Shown here in pieces: positions 3,440 through 59,875 of a stretch of DNA of 64,000 bases. The stretch is from UHGV virus genome UHGV-0279745. One strand, 5' to 3'. The notes below the pieces were generated by a model, which saw only the letters and a list, made by a program, of their open reading frames with translations, was not told the origin of the DNA and searched no databases. How positions within the stretch are numbered: the stretch's first letter is position 1; the number at the start of each line of letters is the position of its first letter. A program made the position numbers and the translations under genes. This DNA comes from a virus.

Positions 3440-3446
3440 TCTCACT

Positions 3447-3500
3447 CCGCTATAGGCTTCGGTCTATAGCGGAATTAATTTTCTTTCCCTTTTCTTTTTT
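3447..3500 (+). terminator. rho-independent terminator
   Basis: ccgctatag-loop-ctatagcgg followed by long T-rich tract. Confidence 0.6.
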
Positions 3501-3605
3501 GTTATTTTGACACTACTTTACTTACCCTCTACTCGACTATTCCTATGCTGGCTGAGGGATGTAAAACGACCTCTTAAACCTTTTTACTTATTGTGAGTTA
3601 ACGCG

Positions 3606-5005: not shown

Positions 5006-5596
5006 ATGGCCGAACGTTGGACTAAAGAAGGTATTATTGCTTCGAAAACAGATTTAGAAGGAGGGTACGTAAACGACCCTGACGATAAAGGTGGGGAAAC
5101 CTGTCACGGTGTAACACTAACAACTGCACGCGAATACGGGTATAAAGGGAGAATGAAGGATCTGACCCGTGCGCAGGCGTTTGATATTTACGATCGCGGT
5201 TGGTGGAAGAAACTTAAACTCGATGAGATTTTAGCTATCTCACCCTTACTCGCAGACCGGATGTTTGATTTTGCTATTAACTCTGGCCGCGTTAACTGTG
5301 TGAAATCGTTACAACGTATTCTGAACGTTTTAAATAACGAAGGGAAACTTTACGCAGATATTGACACTGATGGCGGTATGGGACCTAAAACGCTAGGTGC
5401 CCTGAATGCTTATCTGAATTACCGTAAAGACGAGGGGTTAGGCATCTTAATCTTTGCCTTAATCTCACACCAGGTAACTTACTACACAGAAATCTCCGAA
5501 AAGCGTAAGAAGAATGAAAAATTCGCTTACGGTTGGTATGCGCGTGTGTTCAGGGAAATGCCGGATTATGTGGCGAAGGCGGGGTTAGTAAAATGA
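5006..5596 (+). CDS. GH108-like N-acetylmuramidase with peptidoglycan-binding-like C-terminal region
   Basis: EGGYVNDPDDKGGETCHGVT motif typical of glycoside hydrolase family 108; RBS AAGAGGAG. Confidence 0.65.
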   Translation: MAERWTKEGIIASKTDLEGGYVNDPDDKGGETCHGVTLTTAREYGYKGRMKDLTRAQAFDIYDRGWWKKLKLDEILAISPLLADRMFDFAINSGRVNCVKSLQRILNVLNNEGKLYADIDTDGGMGPKTLGALNAYLNYRKDEGLGILIFALISHQVTYYTEISEKRKKNEKFAYGWYARVFREMPDYVAKAGLVK

Positions 5597-5697
5597 ACTG
5601 GTTTGCTAAACTCTTAGCACTATTGTGGAAAGCGTTAACGTCTGGACGGAAACGTAAAGACGAAAAGCGTGGGTACGAATTTTTCTGGTTTCTATAA
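5593..5697 (+). CDS. small cationic amphipathic peptide (34 aa), unannotated in ORF track
   Basis: ATGA start/stop overlap with muramidase gene; MNWFAKLLALLWKALTSGRKRKDEKRGYEFFWFL. Confidence 0.3.
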   Translation: MNWFAKLLALLWKALTSGRKRKDEKRGYEFFWFL

Positions 5698-5712
5698 GGG
5701 AAGGTGTGGGTA

Positions 5713-6378
5713 ATGGAGAAGCTTCAATATAAACGTTTAGACAATAAGTGGTTTGTATTAACGGAGGATTACCATTATCCGTTTACGTTACGTGAAATTT
5801 ATCACGACCACGTACACTTAGACCGTGCGGTTTATTTAACGGGTGTATTGCCTGACACACAACTGTGGTTAACGGCACCGAAAGGGTTCGTTACCGATTT
5901 AGCGTCGATTCCTGAACACCTCCAGGGAATTTTCCATCCTGACGGGCCGTGGGCACCTGCGGCCTGCATTCACGACCTACTCTATCAAAAATGCAGTACG
6001 GAACGTAGCTATCCCATGACACCGGGTGGTAACGTTTCGCGTATTATCGACAAAGAGTTTTCTGACTTAACGTTCCTGCGTATTATGCAGTCGTTAGAAA
6101 TCTCGCCTTATATCTGCCAAACATTTTATAAGGCCGTCGTTGAATTCGGCTGGGATTCCTACGTAGATCCTAATGCAAAGCCATCCTACAACACTAACGC
6201 GTTTCGTACGTTAGATTATAATCGAAACTATTTATTCGTTCGCGAGTTTAAGGAACCTGCAATCCCTGACCACGAACGTATTGATATCACCACAGATCAG
6301 CCCGTTAATGTCAAATACCTGAACATCAAACGTGCTTTTCTGTCTGGGAGGGAAGATGTTTCATCCAAATCCGAGTAA
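5713..6378 (+). CDS. hypothetical protein (221 aa)
   Basis: ATG at 5713 with GGAAGGTG RBS; conserved-looking TDLASIP and AACIHDLLY motifs. Confidence 0.65.
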   Translation: MEKLQYKRLDNKWFVLTEDYHYPFTLREIYHDHVHLDRAVYLTGVLPDTQLWLTAPKGFVTDLASIPEHLQGIFHPDGPWAPAACIHDLLYQKCSTERSYPMTPGGNVSRIIDKEFSDLTFLRIMQSLEISPYICQTFYKAVVEFGWDSYVDPNAKPSYNTNAFRTLDYNRNYLFVREFKEPAIPDHERIDITTDQPVNVKYLNIKRAFLSGREDVSSKSE

Positions 6379-6871
6379 CTTTAAACTCAAAGAGTTAGTA
6401 CCACAGTCTTATATTGCCAAATACGGCGATTCTGCAATTCGGTTTATGAATCCGTTGTTAATGATTTCGCTACAACAGATTCGTAACCGTTTCGGTAGAA
6501 TGGTGATTAACTCGCCTGCTGCGCAACAGCGTGGCCTAAGAACCTTAGACTTTTTCATCAACCAAGAAAAGCCTAAAGGCGGTAACTATAAACAACGTGC
6601 TTTACAACTCTACTCTGATTCGGGGAGTCAGCACAAGTTCGGTAATGCGATTGATGCAACGTTGTTGGACAGTACCGTAAAGCAGGTTCACGACTACATC
6701 GCCGCTAACCCTGATGAGTTTCCGTTCATTCACTTTATTGAATGCGACATCAGTTGGTTACACATCGACGTTCGTAACCAACCTAACATTACTTTCTGGT
6801 CACCAAATCGAGGTACTGTGAAAGTGGTTAAGCAAAAACCAATCGACTGGAGCTCCTTAGTCGAGATTTAA
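6356..6871 (+). CDS. peptidase M15-like (VanY / L-alanyl-D-glutamate peptidase-type) cell-wall hydrolase
   Basis: SQHKFGNAIDA (SxHxxGxAxD) and WLHIDVR motifs; GGGAGGGAAG RBS before internal ATG. Confidence 0.6.
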   Translation: MFHPNPSNFKLKELVPQSYIAKYGDSAIRFMNPLLMISLQQIRNRFGRMVINSPAAQQRGLRTLDFFINQEKPKGGNYKQRALQLYSDSGSQHKFGNAIDATLLDSTVKQVHDYIAANPDEFPFIHFIECDISWLHIDVRNQPNITFWSPNRGTVKVVKQKPIDWSSLVEI

Positions 6872-6955
6872 CTATTTCTAAGGTGTTTATACCTTATTTT
6901 GTATAAAGACGCTTAGAATGCGTTCTACGCACGATTTGACGGTTAAAATGAATAT

Positions 6956-6994
6956 ACCCTACTCCTTATCGGGAGTAGGGTAGTTTTTATTATT
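6956..6994. terminator. bidirectional terminator between convergent genes
   Basis: accctactcc-ttatcg-ggagtagggt followed by tttttattatt. Confidence 0.6.
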
Positions 6995-7469
6995 CCGCAG
7001 GATGGAGCATTGTTCCGGTGTCAGGAGCTACACCTTCTTTACAGTGGAAGAAAGTAATGCCTTTACCATCACCCGTTTTATATTCTAAAGTAGAATACGC
7101 AAACGTTGGTGTTTTTGAAAGTAACCCATTTACACGGTAGTAACGTTGCCCCGTGATAGGATCGATATTTCCATTAACTTTACCTAATAAATCTTTATAA
7201 AGTTGGGGTGACTCAATCTTACCATTTGGCCAAGTGGCTACCCAGTTAGCGCCAGTATCGATCACAGTTACTGAACCTAACATTAGGTTAGTCGAACTAA
7301 CGACAGGTTTGTAATTTACAAAATCCTGCTCTACACCCATACAGGTGTAAATAACCATGTCGTGTGGCTCTACGGGTACAGTTGAGAATTGGCCGTTAGC
7401 GGTGGGTTGTAAAGCACATCCTGCTAATGAAAAAACACCAACCATAGCGATAAGAAAACGTTTTAGCAT
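6990..7469 (-). CDS. putative lipoprotein (159 aa)
   Basis: N-terminus MLKRFLIAMVGVFSLAGC with lipobox LAGC; start taken at internal ATG. Confidence 0.6.
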   Translation of the reverse strand: MLKRFLIAMVGVFSLAGCALQPTANGQFSTVPVEPHDMVIYTCMGVEQDFVNYKPVVSSTNLMLGSVTVIDTGANWVATWPNGKIESPQLYKDLLGKVNGNIDPITGQRYYRVNGLLSKTPTFAYSTLEYKTGDGKGITFFHCKEGVAPDTGTMLHPAE

Positions 7470-7530
7470 GTTTTCACCTTTTATAAAAAAGTTAAAAATA
7501 ATAATTTTACAGACGACCCTTACTGCCATC

Positions 7531-7560
7531 TGTCATAACTATTAAAACCACTTCTATAAT
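7531..7560 (+). promoter_or_regulatory. possible sigma70-like promoter (-10 TATAAT at 7555-7560)
   Basis: Perfect TATAAT hexamer ~47 nt upstream of the 7608 ATG; -35 is weak. Confidence 0.3.
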
Positions 7561-7607
7561 CCGAACAATACTATGCAATCCACCCTGCCACACACGAGGT
7601 AAAAACG

Positions 7608-8144
7608 ATGGCTAAAGCTTTCAATCTGCAGCTCATTGAAGCTGTTAAAGCTAAAAACCCAGACACTGCGTCTAAACTGACCGTAGAAGACGTTGATTTT
7701 GGCGCTGTTGCTGCGTTCAGCGGCAAATCTGGACGTAATACTAAAATTACGCTGACTGCAAAAGAAAAAAGTGCTAACTTTACCGGCAGCAAAGAATTCC
7801 ATTATATCCGTCTGGCATCCCAAGACCTGATCGGTGCTAAAGCTTACCAGCAGGAAGGTAGCCTCGAACTGGAAAACGCTGCCATTGTAGCCAAACTGAA
7901 CGAAGAGATGGTTACTAAAGGTTATGTAGATGACGCGTTTGCAGAAGGCGAACTCACCATCGAAAAATCTGATGGCGAAAGCGGTGCTAAAGTTTACACC
8001 GTTAAAGTAAACGATGCGCACATCAAATTCTTAGCCGGTACCATTGCCACCTTCACCTATACCAACCCGGTTCCTCCGAAGGTAGCTCTGAGCGGCCTGG
8101 AAGGTGAACTGGATAGCTTCACCGCTCCGGGTATCGGGGGCTAA
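7608..8144 (+). CDS. hypothetical abundant protein (178 aa), paralogue of 8215-8745
   Basis: Strong RBS; biased codon usage; own terminator; NTKITLTA and GELDSFT motifs shared with 8215 gene. Confidence 0.75.
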   Translation: MAKAFNLQLIEAVKAKNPDTASKLTVEDVDFGAVAAFSGKSGRNTKITLTAKEKSANFTGSKEFHYIRLASQDLIGAKAYQQEGSLELENAAIVAKLNEEMVTKGYVDDAFAEGELTIEKSDGESGAKVYTVKVNDAHIKFLAGTIATFTYTNPVPPKVALSGLEGELDSFTAPGIGG

Positions 8145-8153
8145 GTAAGTTAA

Positions 8154-8188
8154 ATCGGGGAGGGGGTAACCTCCCCGATATTTCTTTA
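8154..8188 (+). terminator. rho-independent terminator
   Basis: atcggggagg-loop-cctccccgat followed by T-rich tail. Confidence 0.6.
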
Positions 8189-8214
8189 ACTCGTACTATT
8201 AAGGATTTAAGATA

Positions 8215-9481: not shown

Positions 9482-10029
9482 TCATCGTCTCCTTTAATCA
9501 ACCCTAATTCGATTAACAGTTCAAAATCGATATGACGGAATCTTGTGTCGAAGTCCGATTCCCAATCGATACGGATACCCTGGCATTCTTCTGGCGTTAG
9601 CTCAGGAAAAATCACGCTATTAAATTTCTCCCGCTCATCGTAAAACCCATCAATCGGTGAGTTCGGGTTACGTGTTGCGAAGATAGTAATGCCGGGGAAG
9701 GACAATGCCAACACAGTGATAGATTCTGCGCTGGGTTCGCTTAAAGAGCGGCGTAGAAACGCAATTTTGTGACGTGGGAAATCCAATACCCGTTCTTCAA
9801 ACCCTGGGTTACGTTTTTCAATTTCCGCGACCGACAGGTCAGTAAGTTCGGTGCAGTACATTGGGATGATTACAGTCACACCGTGACGAATCAGCAAGCG
9901 TTTTACGTCATCGGTGAAATCTTCACCGTTAATCACCACATAACAACCAAATAGCTTACTGTTTTCCAGAAACTTATCCAGAAGTCGAATTCTACGCTTC
10001 GTAATATTGTTGATCAGAATTGGTTTCAT
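9457..10029 (-). CDS. hypothetical protein (190 aa) in rSAM/Cys-peptide operon
   Basis: ORF overlapping both neighbours (translational coupling). Confidence 0.65.
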   Translation of the reverse strand: MKPILINNITKRRIRLLDKFLENSKLFGCYVVINGEDFTDDVKRLLIRHGVTVIIPMYCTELTDLSVAEIEKRNPGFEERVLDFPRHKIAFLRRSLSEPSAESITVLALSFPGITIFATRNPNSPIDGFYDEREKFNSVIFPELTPEECQGIRIDWESDFDTRFRHIDFELLIELGLIKGDDECLLLVKA

Positions 10030-11314
10030 CTTTGGCTTCTCTTAATAATTTTTCCTTTTGGGCACGTTCACGAACACAGCGTGGGCAATAACACATGCTC
10101 GTGTCGTGGAACGCTTTTGCTGACGTCGTACCCATCTTCTGTTTCCAGTATTCCGCCACCATCAGTTTCGCTGTCGTCCAGCCACACTGACGTCGTTCAG
10201 CGTGATACGCTTTACGGTCTTCTAACGTTCCTTCCCCGTTCTCGTAAGAAGCCGCCGCGCAGCTACCACAAGCGTGTTTCATCGGACAACCTAAACAGGT
10301 CTCTGGGTAGTTGGTATATTGCGTTTGAATCTCTTCTAACAATTTACCGTTGTCCAGACTGACGAATTCCCGACCTACCAACTCAAACACCGCAGAACGC
10401 GACGTTACCGTTGACATAAAGCGGTTACAGCCAAAGATCTTACGGTCAAATCCTAAGCACGTCATGTGCGTTAACGTCCCACAGAACGGACGTAAGCGTT
10501 CTGGGTTCAGCCGTACGGTGTCATTATACAGTAACTGGTCACGCCAGTTCGGTTCCCAAATCGTATCGAAATCCAACCCTTCTGGAATGATGTGCGATAA
10601 GATATTACGTGGGTTGGTGTGTAATCCTTTCTCAACCCAGTAATCTATCACATCCATCATCTGTAAAGCGATTGACGTCGCCATGCTACGTGGCATAACG
10701 TCTTCGAAAGTTACGTTTCCAGAAATTGTCCCACCGCCAGTAATGTCAATTAATGACTTCATCCCCGCAGCATAGAACGGCAGCGTTTCTAACGTAAAGG
10801 TTGCTTTTACGCCGAGCTCTGCAATGCCAACCTCTTTTAAGTAGTTATAGCCACGTACTGCGGCTTCGTAAGAACCCTGGCGTGTTGTTGTGAATATACG
10901 ATAACGGTCATGGGATTCAGGTAAGCCGTCAATCGAAACCCCAACCGAAAGTTTGTCTTTCCAACGTTCTACAATCTCACGGTTCAACGGACGATCTAAC
11001 AGCGTTCCGTTCGTGGAGATACTAAACATAAACGGTCGGTTGTGTTCTTTACACAACTGCTCAGCGGTTTCAAACGCAGCCAGCAGCAGTTTAGGTTGCA
11101 TGAACGGTTCACCACCGATAATGTCAATAATAACTTCAACATTCGGTTCGTTTTTATCACGTTCAAAACAGGCGTGTAAGAAATCAACAATATCTGCCGC
11201 TTTGTTGTTACGCGGGTACTTACGTTCGTAACAATACTCGCAGTCCAGGTTACACGAAAGGTTGGTTACGATCTGATACGTTAACTGCTTAGGGAATTCA
11301 TTTACTTGACTCAT
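9992..11314 (-). CDS. radical SAM enzyme with C-terminal SPASM/twitch-like Cys cluster (440 aa)
   Basis: CNLDCEYC (CxxxCxxC) near N-terminus, GGEP motif, C-terminal CLGCPMKHACGSC plus further Cys pairs; GAGGGG RBS. Confidence 0.8.
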   Translation of the reverse strand: MSQVNEFPKQLTYQIVTNLSCNLDCEYCYERKYPRNNKAADIVDFLHACFERDKNEPNVEVIIDIIGGEPFMQPKLLLAAFETAEQLCKEHNRPFMFSISTNGTLLDRPLNREIVERWKDKLSVGVSIDGLPESHDRYRIFTTTRQGSYEAAVRGYNYLKEVGIAELGVKATFTLETLPFYAAGMKSLIDITGGGTISGNVTFEDVMPRSMATSIALQMMDVIDYWVEKGLHTNPRNILSHIIPEGLDFDTIWEPNWRDQLLYNDTVRLNPERLRPFCGTLTHMTCLGFDRKIFGCNRFMSTVTSRSAVFELVGREFVSLDNGKLLEEIQTQYTNYPETCLGCPMKHACGSCAAASYENGEGTLEDRKAYHAERRQCGWTTAKLMVAEYWKQKMGTTSAKAFHDTSMCYCPRCVRERAQKEKLLREAKDETNSDQQYYEA

Positions 11315-12221
11315 TTGCCGCCCCTCTATTACGCCCTGCCATCACCACACGACGAATATATTCGTACGCCTCTACACCGATAGAGAAGGCCAGTTGGTTA
11401 CATCCCGATTCCAGAACGTTAGGTGCATTCTGGAGTTGGTGCTCACCACCGTCTGCATTAATCCAAAGACTTTCGCTGCAAACGTTACACCCTTCTTCAA
11501 ACACTTTACTTACTGTAAAGCCGCATTCACGACTATTTACTACATTCAGTCGTTCAATGTTATCCTGAACCTGATAGTAGCCGTAAATAAAGTTCATGAC
11601 GTGGTCGGGCGATAAAGGTTTTGGCATTTTCGCATCTAAGAGTAACGTCATTGCACGGAAACCGTAATGGTAAATCGCGCTGTGCAGCTGAATAATATCT
11701 TCGTGCCAGCGTTTGTCCCCTAAACGGTCCCGTGTCAGGACACCCCAAGTCTGGACATTATCCAGCTCGTAGATCGTTTCCAGTGCTTCGTAACAGCCTT
11801 CGTCAATAAAGCGCATAAACGGGCGCTCAGACGACTTAAACCCATCGATGCTAACGTAGACATTGTCAAACTGTTTTAGCAACGGGAGATGCGATTTACG
11901 CATCTTTAAGCCATTGGTATACAACTGGTGTTTGAGTTCTGGACGAATCACTTTTAATTCGTCAACAAACGCCTCAATTTTACGGGTTGCCAGTAATGGC
12001 TCACCACCCGTCCACTGAATTTCGGTAATGGTTGGATTAGCTTCCAACGCTTCCAAAATTCGTTCACGTTGAAACTCTCGCGGAGAATCTTCACGATTCA
12101 TGTAATAGGCTCCACCGCAGAAGCTACAATCCAGGTTGCACTTGGACGTAGCGACTACGGACAATACGGTGGGTTTATCGTATAAACGATTCGATAACCT
12201 TGGTTCTGCATTGGTTGTCAT
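11298..12221 (-). CDS. radical SAM enzyme (307 aa)
   Basis: CNLDCSFC (CxxxCxxC), GGEPLL motif, additional C-terminal Cys residues; overlaps downstream gene. Confidence 0.8.
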   Translation of the reverse strand: MTTNAEPRLSNRLYDKPTVLSVVATSKCNLDCSFCGGAYYMNREDSPREFQRERILEALEANPTITEIQWTGGEPLLATRKIEAFVDELKVIRPELKHQLYTNGLKMRKSHLPLLKQFDNVYVSIDGFKSSERPFMRFIDEGCYEALETIYELDNVQTWGVLTRDRLGDKRWHEDIIQLHSAIYHYGFRAMTLLLDAKMPKPLSPDHVMNFIYGYYQVQDNIERLNVVNSRECGFTVSKVFEEGCNVCSESLWINADGGEHQLQNAPNVLESGCNQLAFSIGVEAYEYIRRVVMAGRNRGAANESSK

Positions 12222-13488: not shown

Positions 13489-13740
13489 TTACCTCCCAGA
13501 ACACCCACCAGAACAACTACCTGAGCAGCCTGCAGAACAGTTTCCTACACACGAGTTAGAACAACTCCCCGTACAGCTTCCTGAACAGCCACCAGAACAG
13601 GTATTCGAACATCCACTACAGCCTGCACTACAACCTGATACACAGTTTGCAGAACAGGAAGAACCACAGCCGCCTGATGCGTTCCCTGTACAACCACCAG
13701 AACAGCTCGAACAGGTCCAGCTACAGCTCCCACCACAGTC
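13489..13740 (-). repeat. low-complexity Cys-codon repeat region (P2 core)
   Basis: Reiterated CSGx / CxGx codon units visible in sequence. Confidence 0.6.
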
Positions 13741-13887
13741 ATAGTGGTTGCGAGCTTGCCCACCGAATAAGTCTGCGTTGTTCGTCGCTTTCCCACGAAT
13801 ATAGTTTTGTACTGCACCCGTATTCTTCAATGCAGTGTTGTCAATGTTATTTAGCCGCGCTTGTAGCGCAGGTAATCCAATTGCCAT
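13489..13887 (-). CDS. Cys/Ser/Gly-rich precursor-like peptide P2 (132 aa)
   Basis: AAGAGGTG RBS overlapping P1 stop; ~50-aa leader then ~80-aa core with Cys at about every fourth residue (about 20 Cys). Confidence 0.7.
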   Translation of the reverse strand: MAIGLPALQARLNNIDNTALKNTGAVQNYIRGKATNNADLFGGQARNHYDCGGSCSWTCSSCSGGCTGNASGGCGSSCSANCVSGCSAGCSGCSNTCSGGCSGSCTGSCSNSCVGNCSAGCSGSCSGGCSGR

Positions 13888-13897
13888 TTTTCACCTC

Positions 13898-14150
13898 TTA
13901 GGTTGGGCCAGAACAGCCACCAGAGCAAGCACCAGAACAACCCGTAGAACAACGGCCCGAGCAAGCACCCCCACAGGTCCCACTGCAACCTGAGCAGCCA
14001 CCGGAACACGTTGAACTACATCCAGTACACTGGTTACCGCACGCAGAGGAGCAGCTACCTACACACACTGACGTACAGGTGCCCGAACAACTCGTACAGC
14101 CATGCGTACAACCGTTTGAGCACGTCCAGCTGCAACTCCCCCCGCAGTCT
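13898..14150 (-). repeat. low-complexity Cys-codon repeat region (P1 core)
   Basis: Reiterated CSGx units. Confidence 0.6.
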
Positions 14151-14296
14151 AACCGACTTGGCGTCCAACCCGAAAAAGTGTCGGCGGCATTATGTGCTTT
14201 CGACGCAACTTGCGGATCAACACGTGGGCCAGTTGCCATTTGGTTCTCTACGTTGGTGATTCGGTCACGTACATTTTTAACACTGATCGCCATCAC
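13898..14296 (-). CDS. Cys/Ser/Gly-rich precursor-like peptide P1 (132 aa)
   Basis: AAGGA RBS; leader MAISVKNVRDRI, junction RLDCGGSCSWTCS, CxxxC-repeat core. Confidence 0.7.
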   Translation of the reverse strand: MMAISVKNVRDRITNVENQMATGPRVDPQVASKAHNAADTFSGWTPSRLDCGGSCSWTCSNGCTHGCTSCSGTCTSVCVGSCSSACGNQCTGCSSTCSGGCSGCSGTCGGACSGRCSTGCSGACSGGCSGPT

Positions 14297-14360
14297 GTAT
14301 CCTTAAAATAAAAAAGAATGGAGGACTACGCCCATAAGCATAGTTCCTCCTGTAATAAAG

Positions 14361-29417: not shown

Positions 29418-29485
29418 TCTCTACTCCTATAGTCCGTGGGCGTCGAAGTTCATACTATGACTTGAATCTATAGAGGAAAAGAGCT

Positions 29486-32200: not shown

Positions 32201-32260
32201 AATTGATTTCAGATATATATTACTTAAGTGAATAGGGGCTGAACTGGCACTTCAGCCCCT
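32201..32260 (+). promoter_or_regulatory. third copy of the promoter-like core motif (atttcagatatatattactta) followed by 10-bp-stem hairpin (32234-32260)
   Basis: Shares core with the elements at 335 and 36581; hairpin aggggctgaa/ttcagcccct. Confidence 0.45.
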
Positions 32261-36580: not shown

Positions 36581-36631
36581 AAAAATAATTTCAGATATAT
36601 ATTACCTAGGTGAGAGTACAAAAGCTCTCAC
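36581..36631 (+). promoter_or_regulatory. second copy of promoter-like motif plus gtgagag/ctctcac hairpin
   Basis: About 95 percent identical to 335-410 over ~75 bp. Confidence 0.5.
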
Positions 36632-50757: not shown

Positions 50758-51261
50758 ATGGGTTCATTTTTTAAAGTGCTTCCGTTCTTCCTTCAGATGT
50801 TAATGGAAGCATTTAAACCAGGAGAAGGAGAAAACGTATCAAGAGCAAGCAAGATAATGACTTTAATCATCACGATCTTGTTGTCGTATTCTGGCTTCGT
50901 CTCCTACGCCTATGTACAACAGTTTCACGCGCTCGTTGCAGTGCAGTCTCATGACACTTATATGTCGCAGTCTTACCAAGAGATGAAACAAGATCGAGAT
51001 AAACTAAAAGAAGATAATGGGAAGTTATACGACAGGCTCTTCGTTTGCCTCGGCCAGAAACCGCCATATGAAAGCACGTTTAATTCATCGAAAGCGAGCG
51101 GTACGGCGAAGGATCTGTCTTCGACAAAACCAGAAACTCCTGTTAATCCAGCTTCAACACCAGAACAACGTAAAGAGGCTTCGGCGAGACCTGTTGGCAA
51201 TTTAAATGCGAACAGTTTTCGACAGGAGATCATAAAGACGCTAACGTCTTCTAAGGAGTGA
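50758..51261 (+). CDS. hypothetical membrane-anchored protein (167 aa)
   Basis: GAGGTGA RBS; N-terminal hydrophobic segments. Confidence 0.65.
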   Translation: MGSFFKVLPFFLQMLMEAFKPGEGENVSRASKIMTLIITILLSYSGFVSYAYVQQFHALVAVQSHDTYMSQSYQEMKQDRDKLKEDNGKLYDRLFVCLGQKPPYESTFNSSKASGTAKDLSSTKPETPVNPASTPEQRKEASARPVGNLNANSFRQEIIKTLTSSKE

Positions 51262-51264
51262 TTG

Positions 51265-51720
51265 ATGAAAATGCTGTTATTCATCATGATGGTGTTCGTG
51301 GGGTTGGTGAGTAATAGCTACGGCGACGAAGTTAAACGTCCAGCTTATAGGCCACTGGAACTTCCTCCTACACCACCAATAATGGTGAATTGGAAAATTG
51401 ACAATAATGCAATGCGTGAGTATGTTGCGGATGTCAACACCTATGCTTACTACGTTTATGTCTACACCCGAAATTTAAACCAACAAGCCGTTAAACGTGG
51501 CTGGAGCCCACCAATGCTGGCTCCACTTTGTGAGCGTTATGAGTTACCGAAGTTACATGTTGTACCTGAACGCTTATCTCTTGACGAAAGCTCTTTAACG
51601 CCCCAGGAGATTAGCCGTGACCTATCGCGTAAACTCAATAATTTGTTGTGGAATTACCGTTCCGACCGTCAGACACTACTCGATTCGTATAACCAATACT
51701 TGACATCGTGTTTGTACTGA
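51265..51720 (+). CDS. secreted protein (~151 aa) with signal peptide
   Basis: AAGGAG RBS before ATG; MKMLLFIMMVFVGLVSNSYG. Confidence 0.65.
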   Translation: MKMLLFIMMVFVGLVSNSYGDEVKRPAYRPLELPPTPPIMVNWKIDNNAMREYVADVNTYAYYVYVYTRNLNQQAVKRGWSPPMLAPLCERYELPKLHVVPERLSLDESSLTPQEISRDLSRKLNNLLWNYRSDRQTLLDSYNQYLTSCLY

Positions 51721-59777: not shown

Positions 59778-59875
59778 TCTAAAACCTCGGATTATAAGTC
59801 AGGGTTACATAGTAAAGTCTTTTTACAGTTCACCCAAACCTTATGACCGAGACTCTTCCATAAAGGTAAAGCTCG

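Follow-up and report, generated by a model that had tools for sequence, protein, structure and literature searches.

What might a lone lipoprotein gene, transcribed against its neighbours between cell wall hydrolase and head protein genes, do for a large phage? The question is raised by the minus-strand open reading frame (ORF) 6990-7469 of UHGV virus genome UHGV-0279745, analysed here within a stretch of 64,000 nucleotides (nt), hereafter the window. The window is from an SPN3US/Asesino-like nucleus-forming jumbo phage, and beyond phiKZ the lysis, exclusion and envelope interactions of such phages are almost uncharted. A preliminary description of the sequence had reported a product of 159 amino acids (aa) with an LAGC lipobox behind a signal sequence, and no other minus-strand gene within the first 8 kb. 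Both statements held: the ORF and its lipobox are present, and the other minus-strand ORFs of that region are short overlaps of plus-strand genes. We are highly confident that the gene encodes a phage outer membrane lipoprotein of the gp159 family. Our best overall explanation, that this lipoprotein acts as an exclusion or protection factor in the host envelope, is tentative.

Identity and conservation of the lipoprotein

The coding sequence runs on the minus strand from an ATG at 7469 to a TAA stop at 6990-6992 and specifies a 159-aa prolipoprotein, as indicated by the ORF list, tblastn, a PHROG match and annotated orthologues. A Shine-Dalgarno-like AAAGGTG (7475-7481, minus strand) lies 5 nt 5' of the ATG and is also present in relatives. 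A longer reading of 179 aa from an ATG at 7529 was rejected, as it has neither a ribosome-binding site (RBS) nor support from homologues and its ATG falls within a conserved hairpin.

The product begins with MLKRFLIAMVGVFSLAGC, which ends in Cys18, and continues with ALQ, placing Ala19 at position +2. Signal peptide and lipobox (7416-7469, minus strand) comprise a basic n-region (MLKR), an h-region with a 10-residue hydrophobic core (FLIAMVGVFS; mean Kyte-Doolittle value 2.3) and the lipobox L15-A-G-C18 at nt 7416-7427. With LAGC and Cys18, the N-terminus agrees with the rule for bacterial lipoproteins, namely a signal peptide, the motif [LVI][ASTVI][GAS]C and a Cys at positions 15-35. A lipobox of the form [L/V]-x-[G/A/S]-C is retained in all 34 family sequences, down to about 30% identity, while the core of the h-region drifts freely, which rules out a chance match. 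The residue at +2 is Ala in 26 of these sequences, Ser and Val in three each, Thr and Met in one each, and Asp in none; the absence of this Lol-avoidance signal implies sorting to the outer membrane by Lol. The sequence evidence thus strongly supports a Lol-sorted outer membrane lipoprotein with predicted lipidation at Cys18.

By sequence comparison, ORF 6990-7469 is the orthologue of SPN3US_0159 (gp159, YP_009153453) and of Asesino gp174. A megablast search with positions 6500-8200 against the 50,697 phage records of INPHARED found no near-identical phage. With tblastn, 55 jumbo-phage records matched the protein at 47-58% identity, among them SPN3US and its kin and the Erwinia phages Asesino, phiEaH2, Wellington, Kwan, ChrisDB, Caitlin and others. 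The SPN3US, Asesino, Wellington and Kwan proteins resemble the window protein over their full length at this level of identity and share its lipobox; the orthologues of several Erwinia phages, including Wellington and Kwan, carry the automatic UniProt name 'Lipoprotein'. The Erwinia-phage orthologues differ in a Pro/Ala-rich C-terminal tail, whereas the window allele has no such tail and an unusually low GC content at third codon positions (GC3). In PHROG, residues 2-150 matched phrog_9559 ('unknown function', E = 5.2e-66).

A word-indexed search returned nine clusters of the family, and an exhaustive profile search of 1.84 billion representative proteins matched 14 proteins, some of them scrambled products of assembly. 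IMG/VR and the genomes of 185,579 bacterial and archaeal species, one per species, were searched using a 9-sequence alignment, with ESPQLYKD as the search pattern. IMG/VR yielded 14 loci, 12 of them on contigs of 220-250 kb and the others on contigs of 152 kb (L030) and 107 kb (L031), and the pattern scan of the species genomes found no relative. Scans against Pfam, NCBIfam and PADLOC and a profile search against PDB sequences produced only signal-peptide matches, and we found no published functional study of SPN3US gp159 or of a lipoprotein or exclusion role for it. As judged from these searches, the lipoprotein is an orphan family confined to one phage clade. It adds a member to a known sort of protein, the phage-encoded outer membrane lipoprotein without assigned function, and the annotation 'conserved hypothetical lipoprotein' is solid, if ordinary. 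Concerning the artefacts among the profile matches, P0014, P0016 and P0021 are scrambled concatenations of fragments of SPN3US-type proteins, one of them 5,404 aa long with 17 matched stretches; these database 'homologues' are evidently products of assembly or gene calling and no true relatives.

The whole 64 kb was scanned with a PROSITE-like lipobox rule, applied to every possible start in six frames. ORF 6990-7469 was the sole convincing lipoprotein ORF, and the remaining matches were short antisense ORFs without an RBS. A scan of the complete SPN3US genome gave two annotated-gene candidates besides gp159, so that the counterpart of the window's one clear lipoprotein gene is one of only three candidates there; the window homologue of the second of them reads IIFC and has no lipobox.

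Predicted structure of the mature protein

The mature chain has 142 aa (15.5 kDa, isoelectric point 5.5, 7% Pro), its highest 19-residue Kyte-Doolittle mean is 1.07 and its C-terminus, KEGVAPDTGTMLHPAE, is hydrophilic. Nine residues are invariant among 17 aligned sequences reaching down to 30% identity (Cys18, Cys43, Gly73, Arg109, Tyr111, Ser126, Gly133, Gly135 and Cys143). The most conserved segment in the alignments, E86-SPQLYKDLLGKVNG-100 (E86-SPQLYKDLLGK-x-DG; 7170-7214, minus strand), is a candidate interaction surface.

AlphaFold modelling from nine sequences was too weak to be used, with a predicted local distance difference test (pLDDT) score of 66. It was replaced by a model from a 17-sequence alignment that came from the exhaustive hidden Markov model search, and this reached a mean pLDDT of 84, with the core above 90. 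The model shows a helical signal peptide, a low-confidence tether at residues 19-27 and about ten beta-strands over residues 28-145 (7035-7388, minus strand), which are predicted to form a closed antiparallel beta-barrel. The first long strand contains Cys43 and the final strand Cys143, and these positions, together with the periplasmic location, lead us to infer a disulfide that would close the barrel. Two invariant cysteines beyond that of the lipobox are consistent with an oxidising compartment. As modelled, the fold is a generic small closed barrel and points to no particular function.

Transcription unit, genomic context and evolution

Downstream, the gene ends at a bidirectional intrinsic terminator (6955-6982, both strands) with a 12-bp stem and T-runs on both strands, which it has in common with the convergent M15-peptidase operon. 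We then compared the 200 nt 5' of the gene among the window lineage, SPN3US, STsAS and Asesino. In otherwise diverged DNA only two islands are conserved. One is a minus-strand TTATGACA element ((A/T)TATGACA; 7531-7538) with a putative +1 at G7534 and a leader of 65 nt to the ATG. The other is a plus-strand TATG (TATGCA(A/C); 7572-7575) located 33 nt 5' of the divergent gp160-like gene at 7608-8144. Directly after the putative +1, all four lineages encode a hairpin whose stems differ in a compensatory manner (ACAG/CTGT versus ACAAT/ATTGT); the window version, with 9 bp in its stem, is the stem-loop at the 5' end of the predicted mRNA (7509-7533, minus strand; RNAfold -11.6 kcal/mol for the first 32 nt). 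Late promoters of the phiKZ non-virion RNA polymerase are defined by TATG with G as +1 (PMC4666361). By this analogy, the element at 7531-7538 may be a TATG-type promoter like the phiKZ late promoters of the non-virion RNA polymerase. The two TATG elements would then form a back-to-back promoter region for the lipoprotein and gp160-like genes, and the lipoprotein gene would be a monocistronic unit of the middle or late transcription class. The preliminary description had set the gene between two terminators. The downstream one stands, whereas the upstream hairpin lies on the gene's own strand after the TATG and is better read as the mRNA 5' end; it is probably what had been taken for the second terminator.

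Thirteen window proteins were mapped on 22 loci, 20 of them from the close family. Window and SPN3US share the order GH108 endolysin, 34-aa ORF, DUF1353, M15-like peptidase, lipoprotein (on the opposite strand), DUF7941 paralogues, DUF4376 and two radical-SAM genes. The divergent pairing of the lipoprotein with a gp160-like gene was retained in 20 of 20 close-family loci, and most gp159-type orthologues occupy the same slot between the gp160-like and DUF1353/M15 genes. SPN3US gp160, present in over 300 copies per capsid, is among the most abundant head proteins and one of the 20 members of paralogue family B (PMC5694885), which is DUF7941 in Pfam. In virion proteomics (PMC10052503 Table S2), gp160 gave about 580 spectra; gp159 was seen with three peptide-spectrum matches in a single virion preparation out of three, was absent from purified heads and was listed as 'Non-virion'. 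Therefore, the lipoprotein is translated but is no component of the particle.

The other flank is less constant. The GH108-DUF1353 module lies on the other side in L035, L036 and L039, and the M15 gene is absent at the lipoprotein locus in Asesino-type phages. Conversely, 170 phage records, CR5 and many vibriophages among them, have the M15 peptidase without a detectable lipoprotein. Because the module has moved in three lineages and the presence of M15 and of the lipoprotein is uncoupled, the hydrolase cluster is a frequent but not an obligate neighbour. Thus, of the earlier placement next to a hydrolase cluster, the adjacency in the window is correct and a conserved partnership is not. A dedicated immunity pairing with the M15 peptidase was rejected, as the phyletic patterns of the two genes disagree. 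Distant homologues (30-38% identity) also lie among DUF7941 genes. One of them (L022, 31% identity) is convergent with M15 and DUF1353, and another (L017) comes after a tail-fibre-like gene and DUF4376, whereas the close-clade neighbours are DUF7941 or family-B head proteins. In distant contigs DUF7941 is fused to leucine-rich repeat, DUF285 and fibre domains; a link to a tail-fibre or receptor module was nevertheless discarded, since the SPN3US paralogues are head proteins.

The gene is under purifying selection, with a ratio of nonsynonymous to synonymous substitution rates (dN/dS) of 0.07-0.09 against its closest relatives (L027, L005); positive selection was rejected, dN/dS being about 0.08 where measurable. 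Against L029, the flanking genes are 92-97% identical and the lipoprotein 73%, with saturated synonymous divergence, which indicates allele replacement. The locus is a mosaic hot spot relative to L027-L031, where identity falls to 72-73% for the lipoprotein, 54-88% for the gp160-like protein, 61-62% for DUF4376 and 74-75% for a 190-aa gene product. Furthermore, the GC3 of the lipoprotein gene (0.32) is the lowest of the 68 window ORFs (z = -3.4), and SPN3US has no such outlier. With its own promoter, its own terminator and exchangeable alleles, the gene is moron-like and accessory.

Proposed function

We suggest, with low confidence, that the lipoprotein is an accessory envelope-acting factor outside the lysis machinery proper. 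Its predicted biogenesis is well supported and comprises export by Sec, lipidation at Cys18 and Lol-dependent sorting to the inner leaflet of the outer membrane; there, a tether of about ten residues would hold the 13-kDa beta-barrel, closed by the putative disulfide, in the periplasm. Expressed from a self-contained unit (TATG-type promoter, 5' hairpin, RBS and terminator) back to back with the gene of an abundant head protein, it would probably be made in the middle or late phase. The ESPQLYKDLLGK face of the barrel would bind a conserved periplasm-facing component of the host envelope, and the infected cell and its debris would become refractory to further phage, which would amount to superinfection exclusion or protection of the progeny. 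The logic would be that of T5 Llp or of Cor, carried out by an unrelated and larger protein.

The gene being non-virion and moron-like favours such a role, and T5 Llp and the Cor proteins of phi80 and N15 are likewise non-virion outer membrane lipoproteins encoded as small independent units. Mature Llp has about 60 aa, as compared to 142 aa for the window lipoprotein, and neither a Pfam scan nor structure comparison found homology to Llp or Cor.

Several points weigh against exclusion or protection. The literature on SPN3US gp159 holds no functional evidence for exclusion, and Pfam, NCBIfam, PADLOC, the PDB-sequence profile search and the structure search linked the lipoprotein to no exclusion protein, either by sequence or by a specific fold. 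The promoter class rests on a 4-nt motif and a conservation footprint. T5 llp is an early gene beside the gene of the receptor-binding protein, whereas the lipoprotein gene carries a late-type element and adjoins head-protein paralogues, with no receptor-binding neighbour in the close clade. In addition, the SPN3US receptor is the flagellum (PMC11428620), so a periplasm-facing lipoprotein could not mask the filament directly. Finally, the proteins of Salmonella and Erwinia phages are about 50% identical, which one would not usually see in a factor that has to match a variable receptor. We speculate that a flagellar receptor and conservation across hosts would fit a conserved target, such as the basal body or an envelope machine. 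On balance, exclusion or protection as the mechanism is possible but doubtful, somewhat more so than the explanation taken as a whole.

The excluded roles clear the ground, as the lipoprotein is no virion protein, no canonical o- or u-spanin and has no tie to the hydrolases. It offers a compact, testable envelope-factor candidate in a genetically tractable system (SPN3US amber mutants), and an exclusion factor, if that is what it proves to be, would be relevant to the design of phage cocktails with SPN3US-like phages. The chief value of the analysis lies in its negative results and in what was found on the way: a lipobox-less spanin-like protein, cationic mini-peptides, Cys/Gly/Ser-rich tandem genes and promoter motifs.

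Alternative functions

The alternative that survives best, although we consider it unlikely, is an envelope-remodelling barrel that binds a ligand or lipid and is akin to calycins, YceI or lipocalins. Such a protein might sequester a lipid, polyisoprenoid or lipopolysaccharide intermediate or disturb traffic through the Lol, Lpt or Bam machinery, and thereby ready the outer membrane for release or disable an envelope defence. The closed antiparallel topology is common to the barrels of Cap15, of Neisseria NHBA, TbpB, fHbp and HpuA, and of BT_2261, YceI and nitrobindin, many of which are also lipid-anchored; the generic nature of the predicted fold has been noted above.

The neighbourhood suggests a slightly less probable role, that of an 'immunity' protein that inhibits a phage peptidoglycan hydrolase in the periplasm. 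Functionally comparable to T4 Spackle or MliC/PliC, it would protect the infected cell from lysis from without or block the wall-degrading enzymes of superinfecting virions. These proteins are small, periplasmic or anchored in the outer membrane, and neutralise wall hydrolases, and the lipoprotein gene is also often adjacent to hydrolase genes; its convergent adjacency to M15 occurs in the window, SPN3US, STsAS and the distant L022. MliC, moreover, is a lipoprotein with a small disulfide-bonded eight-stranded barrel. Against this stand the Asesino-type phages, which have the lipoprotein without M15 at the locus, the CR5-type phages with M15 and no detectable lipoprotein, and the three lineages with a relocated hydrolase module. 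The lipoprotein has no Pfam match to MliC, PliC, Ivy or PliG, and its confident model has no specific structural match to MliC/PliC or Spackle. Furthermore, SPN3US gp158, the M15 peptidase, is non-virion in the later and larger data set (PMC10052503 Table S2).

Marginally below this we rank an o-spanin or spanin accessory, possibly an outer membrane anchor that the o-spanin-like protein of the window has lost. The lipoprotein is predicted to reside in the outer membrane, is probably made late and in most relatives adjoins the cluster of GH108 endolysin, small peptide, DUF1353 and M15 genes. The o-spanins lambda Rz1 and phiKZ gp141.1 are likewise phage lipoproteins of the inner leaflet of the outer membrane, and gp141.1, with 120 codons (PMC12894885), is of similar size. 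An o-spanin gene lies within its i-spanin gene, overlaps it or comes directly after it (PMC12894885, PMC6139136). The lipoprotein thus has the outer membrane signal of an o-spanin and fails in the linkage: in none of the 20 close-family loci does an i-spanin gene precede it on the same strand, the neighbour there being the divergent head-protein gene. A Kyte-Doolittle scan did not find the C-terminal transmembrane domain (TMD) of a u-spanin of the T1 gp11 type. Whereas the known o-spanins are extended and paired with an i-spanin, the lipoprotein is an unpaired, compact and globular barrel with 7% Pro and two extra cysteines placed for an intramolecular bond. In addition, the link to the endolysin cluster is broken in the three lineages named above.

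A separate pair is the better spanin candidate by architecture. SPN3US is not listed in the SpaninDataBase supplements. Its ACQ60_gp062 combines an N-terminal TMD with a helical region and a Pro-rich tail and is followed after 10 nt by ACQ60_gp061 (180497-180976), which reads MKLFLAAILVLLLTGC and then a Pro-rich stretch. The window homologues, a candidate i-/o-spanin pair, lie at 50758-51261 and 51265-51720 (plus strand; phrog_8719 and phrog_8165), and alignments show conserved cysteines in both proteins. The product of 51265-51720 is exported, with a Pro-rich N-terminus and two conserved cysteines. Its homologues in SPN3US, Asesino, pEa_SNUABM_6 and Wellington carry a lipobox; in the window protein, an alignment gap of four residues falls precisely on the lipobox, residues 1-88 contain no Cys, and the sequence reads MKMLLFIMMVFVGLVSNSYG followed by DEV, a signal peptidase I-like site. 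This is no sequencing error, because 256 blocks of public assemblies, many of them on 224-kb contigs, encode a protein identical to it.

The lipobox-less form is thus common in metagenomes and leaves ORF 6990-7469 as the sole lipoprotein gene of the window, so that a lysis-related role of the lipoprotein keeps a small probability. The lipoprotein is, however, unchanged in lineages with a lipobox-bearing o-spanin-like protein, which speaks against a lineage-specific replacement. Taken together, the absence of an upstream i-spanin and of a C-terminal TMD, the globular barrel and the separate candidate pair strongly support that it is no canonical o- or u-spanin, and the doubt already voiced in the preliminary description about a place in a spanin pair was well founded.

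Less probable still, even when its two versions are counted together, is a new class of late-made, disulfide-closed barrel lipoproteins that would dock on a conserved periplasm-facing host machine. In one version the target would be the flagellar basal body or an envelope complex common to Salmonella and Erwinia, and flagellotropic jumbo phages would be shut out. In the other, the lipoprotein would serve as the missing outer membrane anchor of a spanin with a lipobox-less o-subunit in the window lineage.

A periplasmic sensor or regulator of lysis timing, as an antiholin-like or lysis-inhibition factor, is very improbable: the gene often adjoins the endolysin and conserved small membrane-active peptides, and phiKZ slows lysis in a multiplicity-dependent way for which a lysis-inhibition system was suggested (PMC12894885), but no holin was identified that could pair with the lipoprotein, similarity to T4 RI or RIII is absent and the endolysin linkage is not conserved.

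Other features of the window

The TATG elements are not restricted to the lipoprotein locus. Sequence on the promoter side of intergenic regions is about nine-fold enriched in A[CG]TATG (6 copies within 2.7 kb versus 31 in 128 kb, both strands), and the lipoprotein's own element, GTTATG, agrees with the core of this word only. Such elements lie 27-60 nt 5' of structural-gene starts, for example in 7572-7575 (plus strand), 29418-29485 (both strands), 59778-59875 and 14297-14360 (minus strand) and 3440-3605 (plus strand). The intergenic copies are consistent with TATG late promoters of the phiKZ type. The longer WTATGACA was discarded as a general promoter word, having a single occurrence in the window.

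A second motif, the 17-mer TTTCAGATATATATTAC, occurs in three exact intergenic copies (343-359, 32207-32223 and 36589-36605, plus strand) against a chance expectation of 0.2, each followed by (C/T)T(A/T)AGGTG. We take it to resemble the extended early-promoter consensus of phiKZ-like phages, and in this phage group the copies probably serve as early promoters for the virion RNA polymerase. None of them is near the lipoprotein gene, and early-gene status was rejected for it.

In the hydrolase cluster, the DUF1353 (5704-6378) and M15-like (6356-6871) genes, both on the plus strand, overlap by 23 nt and travel together in CR5-type and SPN3US-type phages and in L022. The SPN3US M15 peptidase gp158 was described as a tail-side virion protein in a 2016 report and classified as non-virion in 2023. 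Overlapping the stop codon of the GH108 endolysin gene, a 34-aa ORF (5593-5697, plus strand) encodes MNWFAKLLALLWKALTSGRKRKDEKRGYEFFWFL, with a net charge of +5 and an amphipathic N-terminus. It is kept after the endolysin in Asesino (gp172), phiEaH2 and STsAS, and in SPN3US it is present without annotation (NWFxxLMxAxxRALxFAxRRKR). The same post-endolysin gap of SPN3US and STsAS contains further mini-ORFs with TMD-like or amphipathic segments. These mini-peptides may be lysis accessories of a disruptin- or holin-like kind.

Finally, in two tandem paralogues of 132 aa (13489-13887 and 13898-14296, minus strand) the C-terminal 85 or so residues are nearly all Cys/Gly/Ser/Thr repeats, for example CGGSCSWTCSSCSGGCTGN...CSGSCSGGCSGR. 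A 299-aa ORF and two radical-SAM genes (9992-12221) follow shortly downstream of these paralogues. Together with the radical-SAM genes they resemble a set of peptide precursors and maturases, which would be unusual in a jumbo phage.

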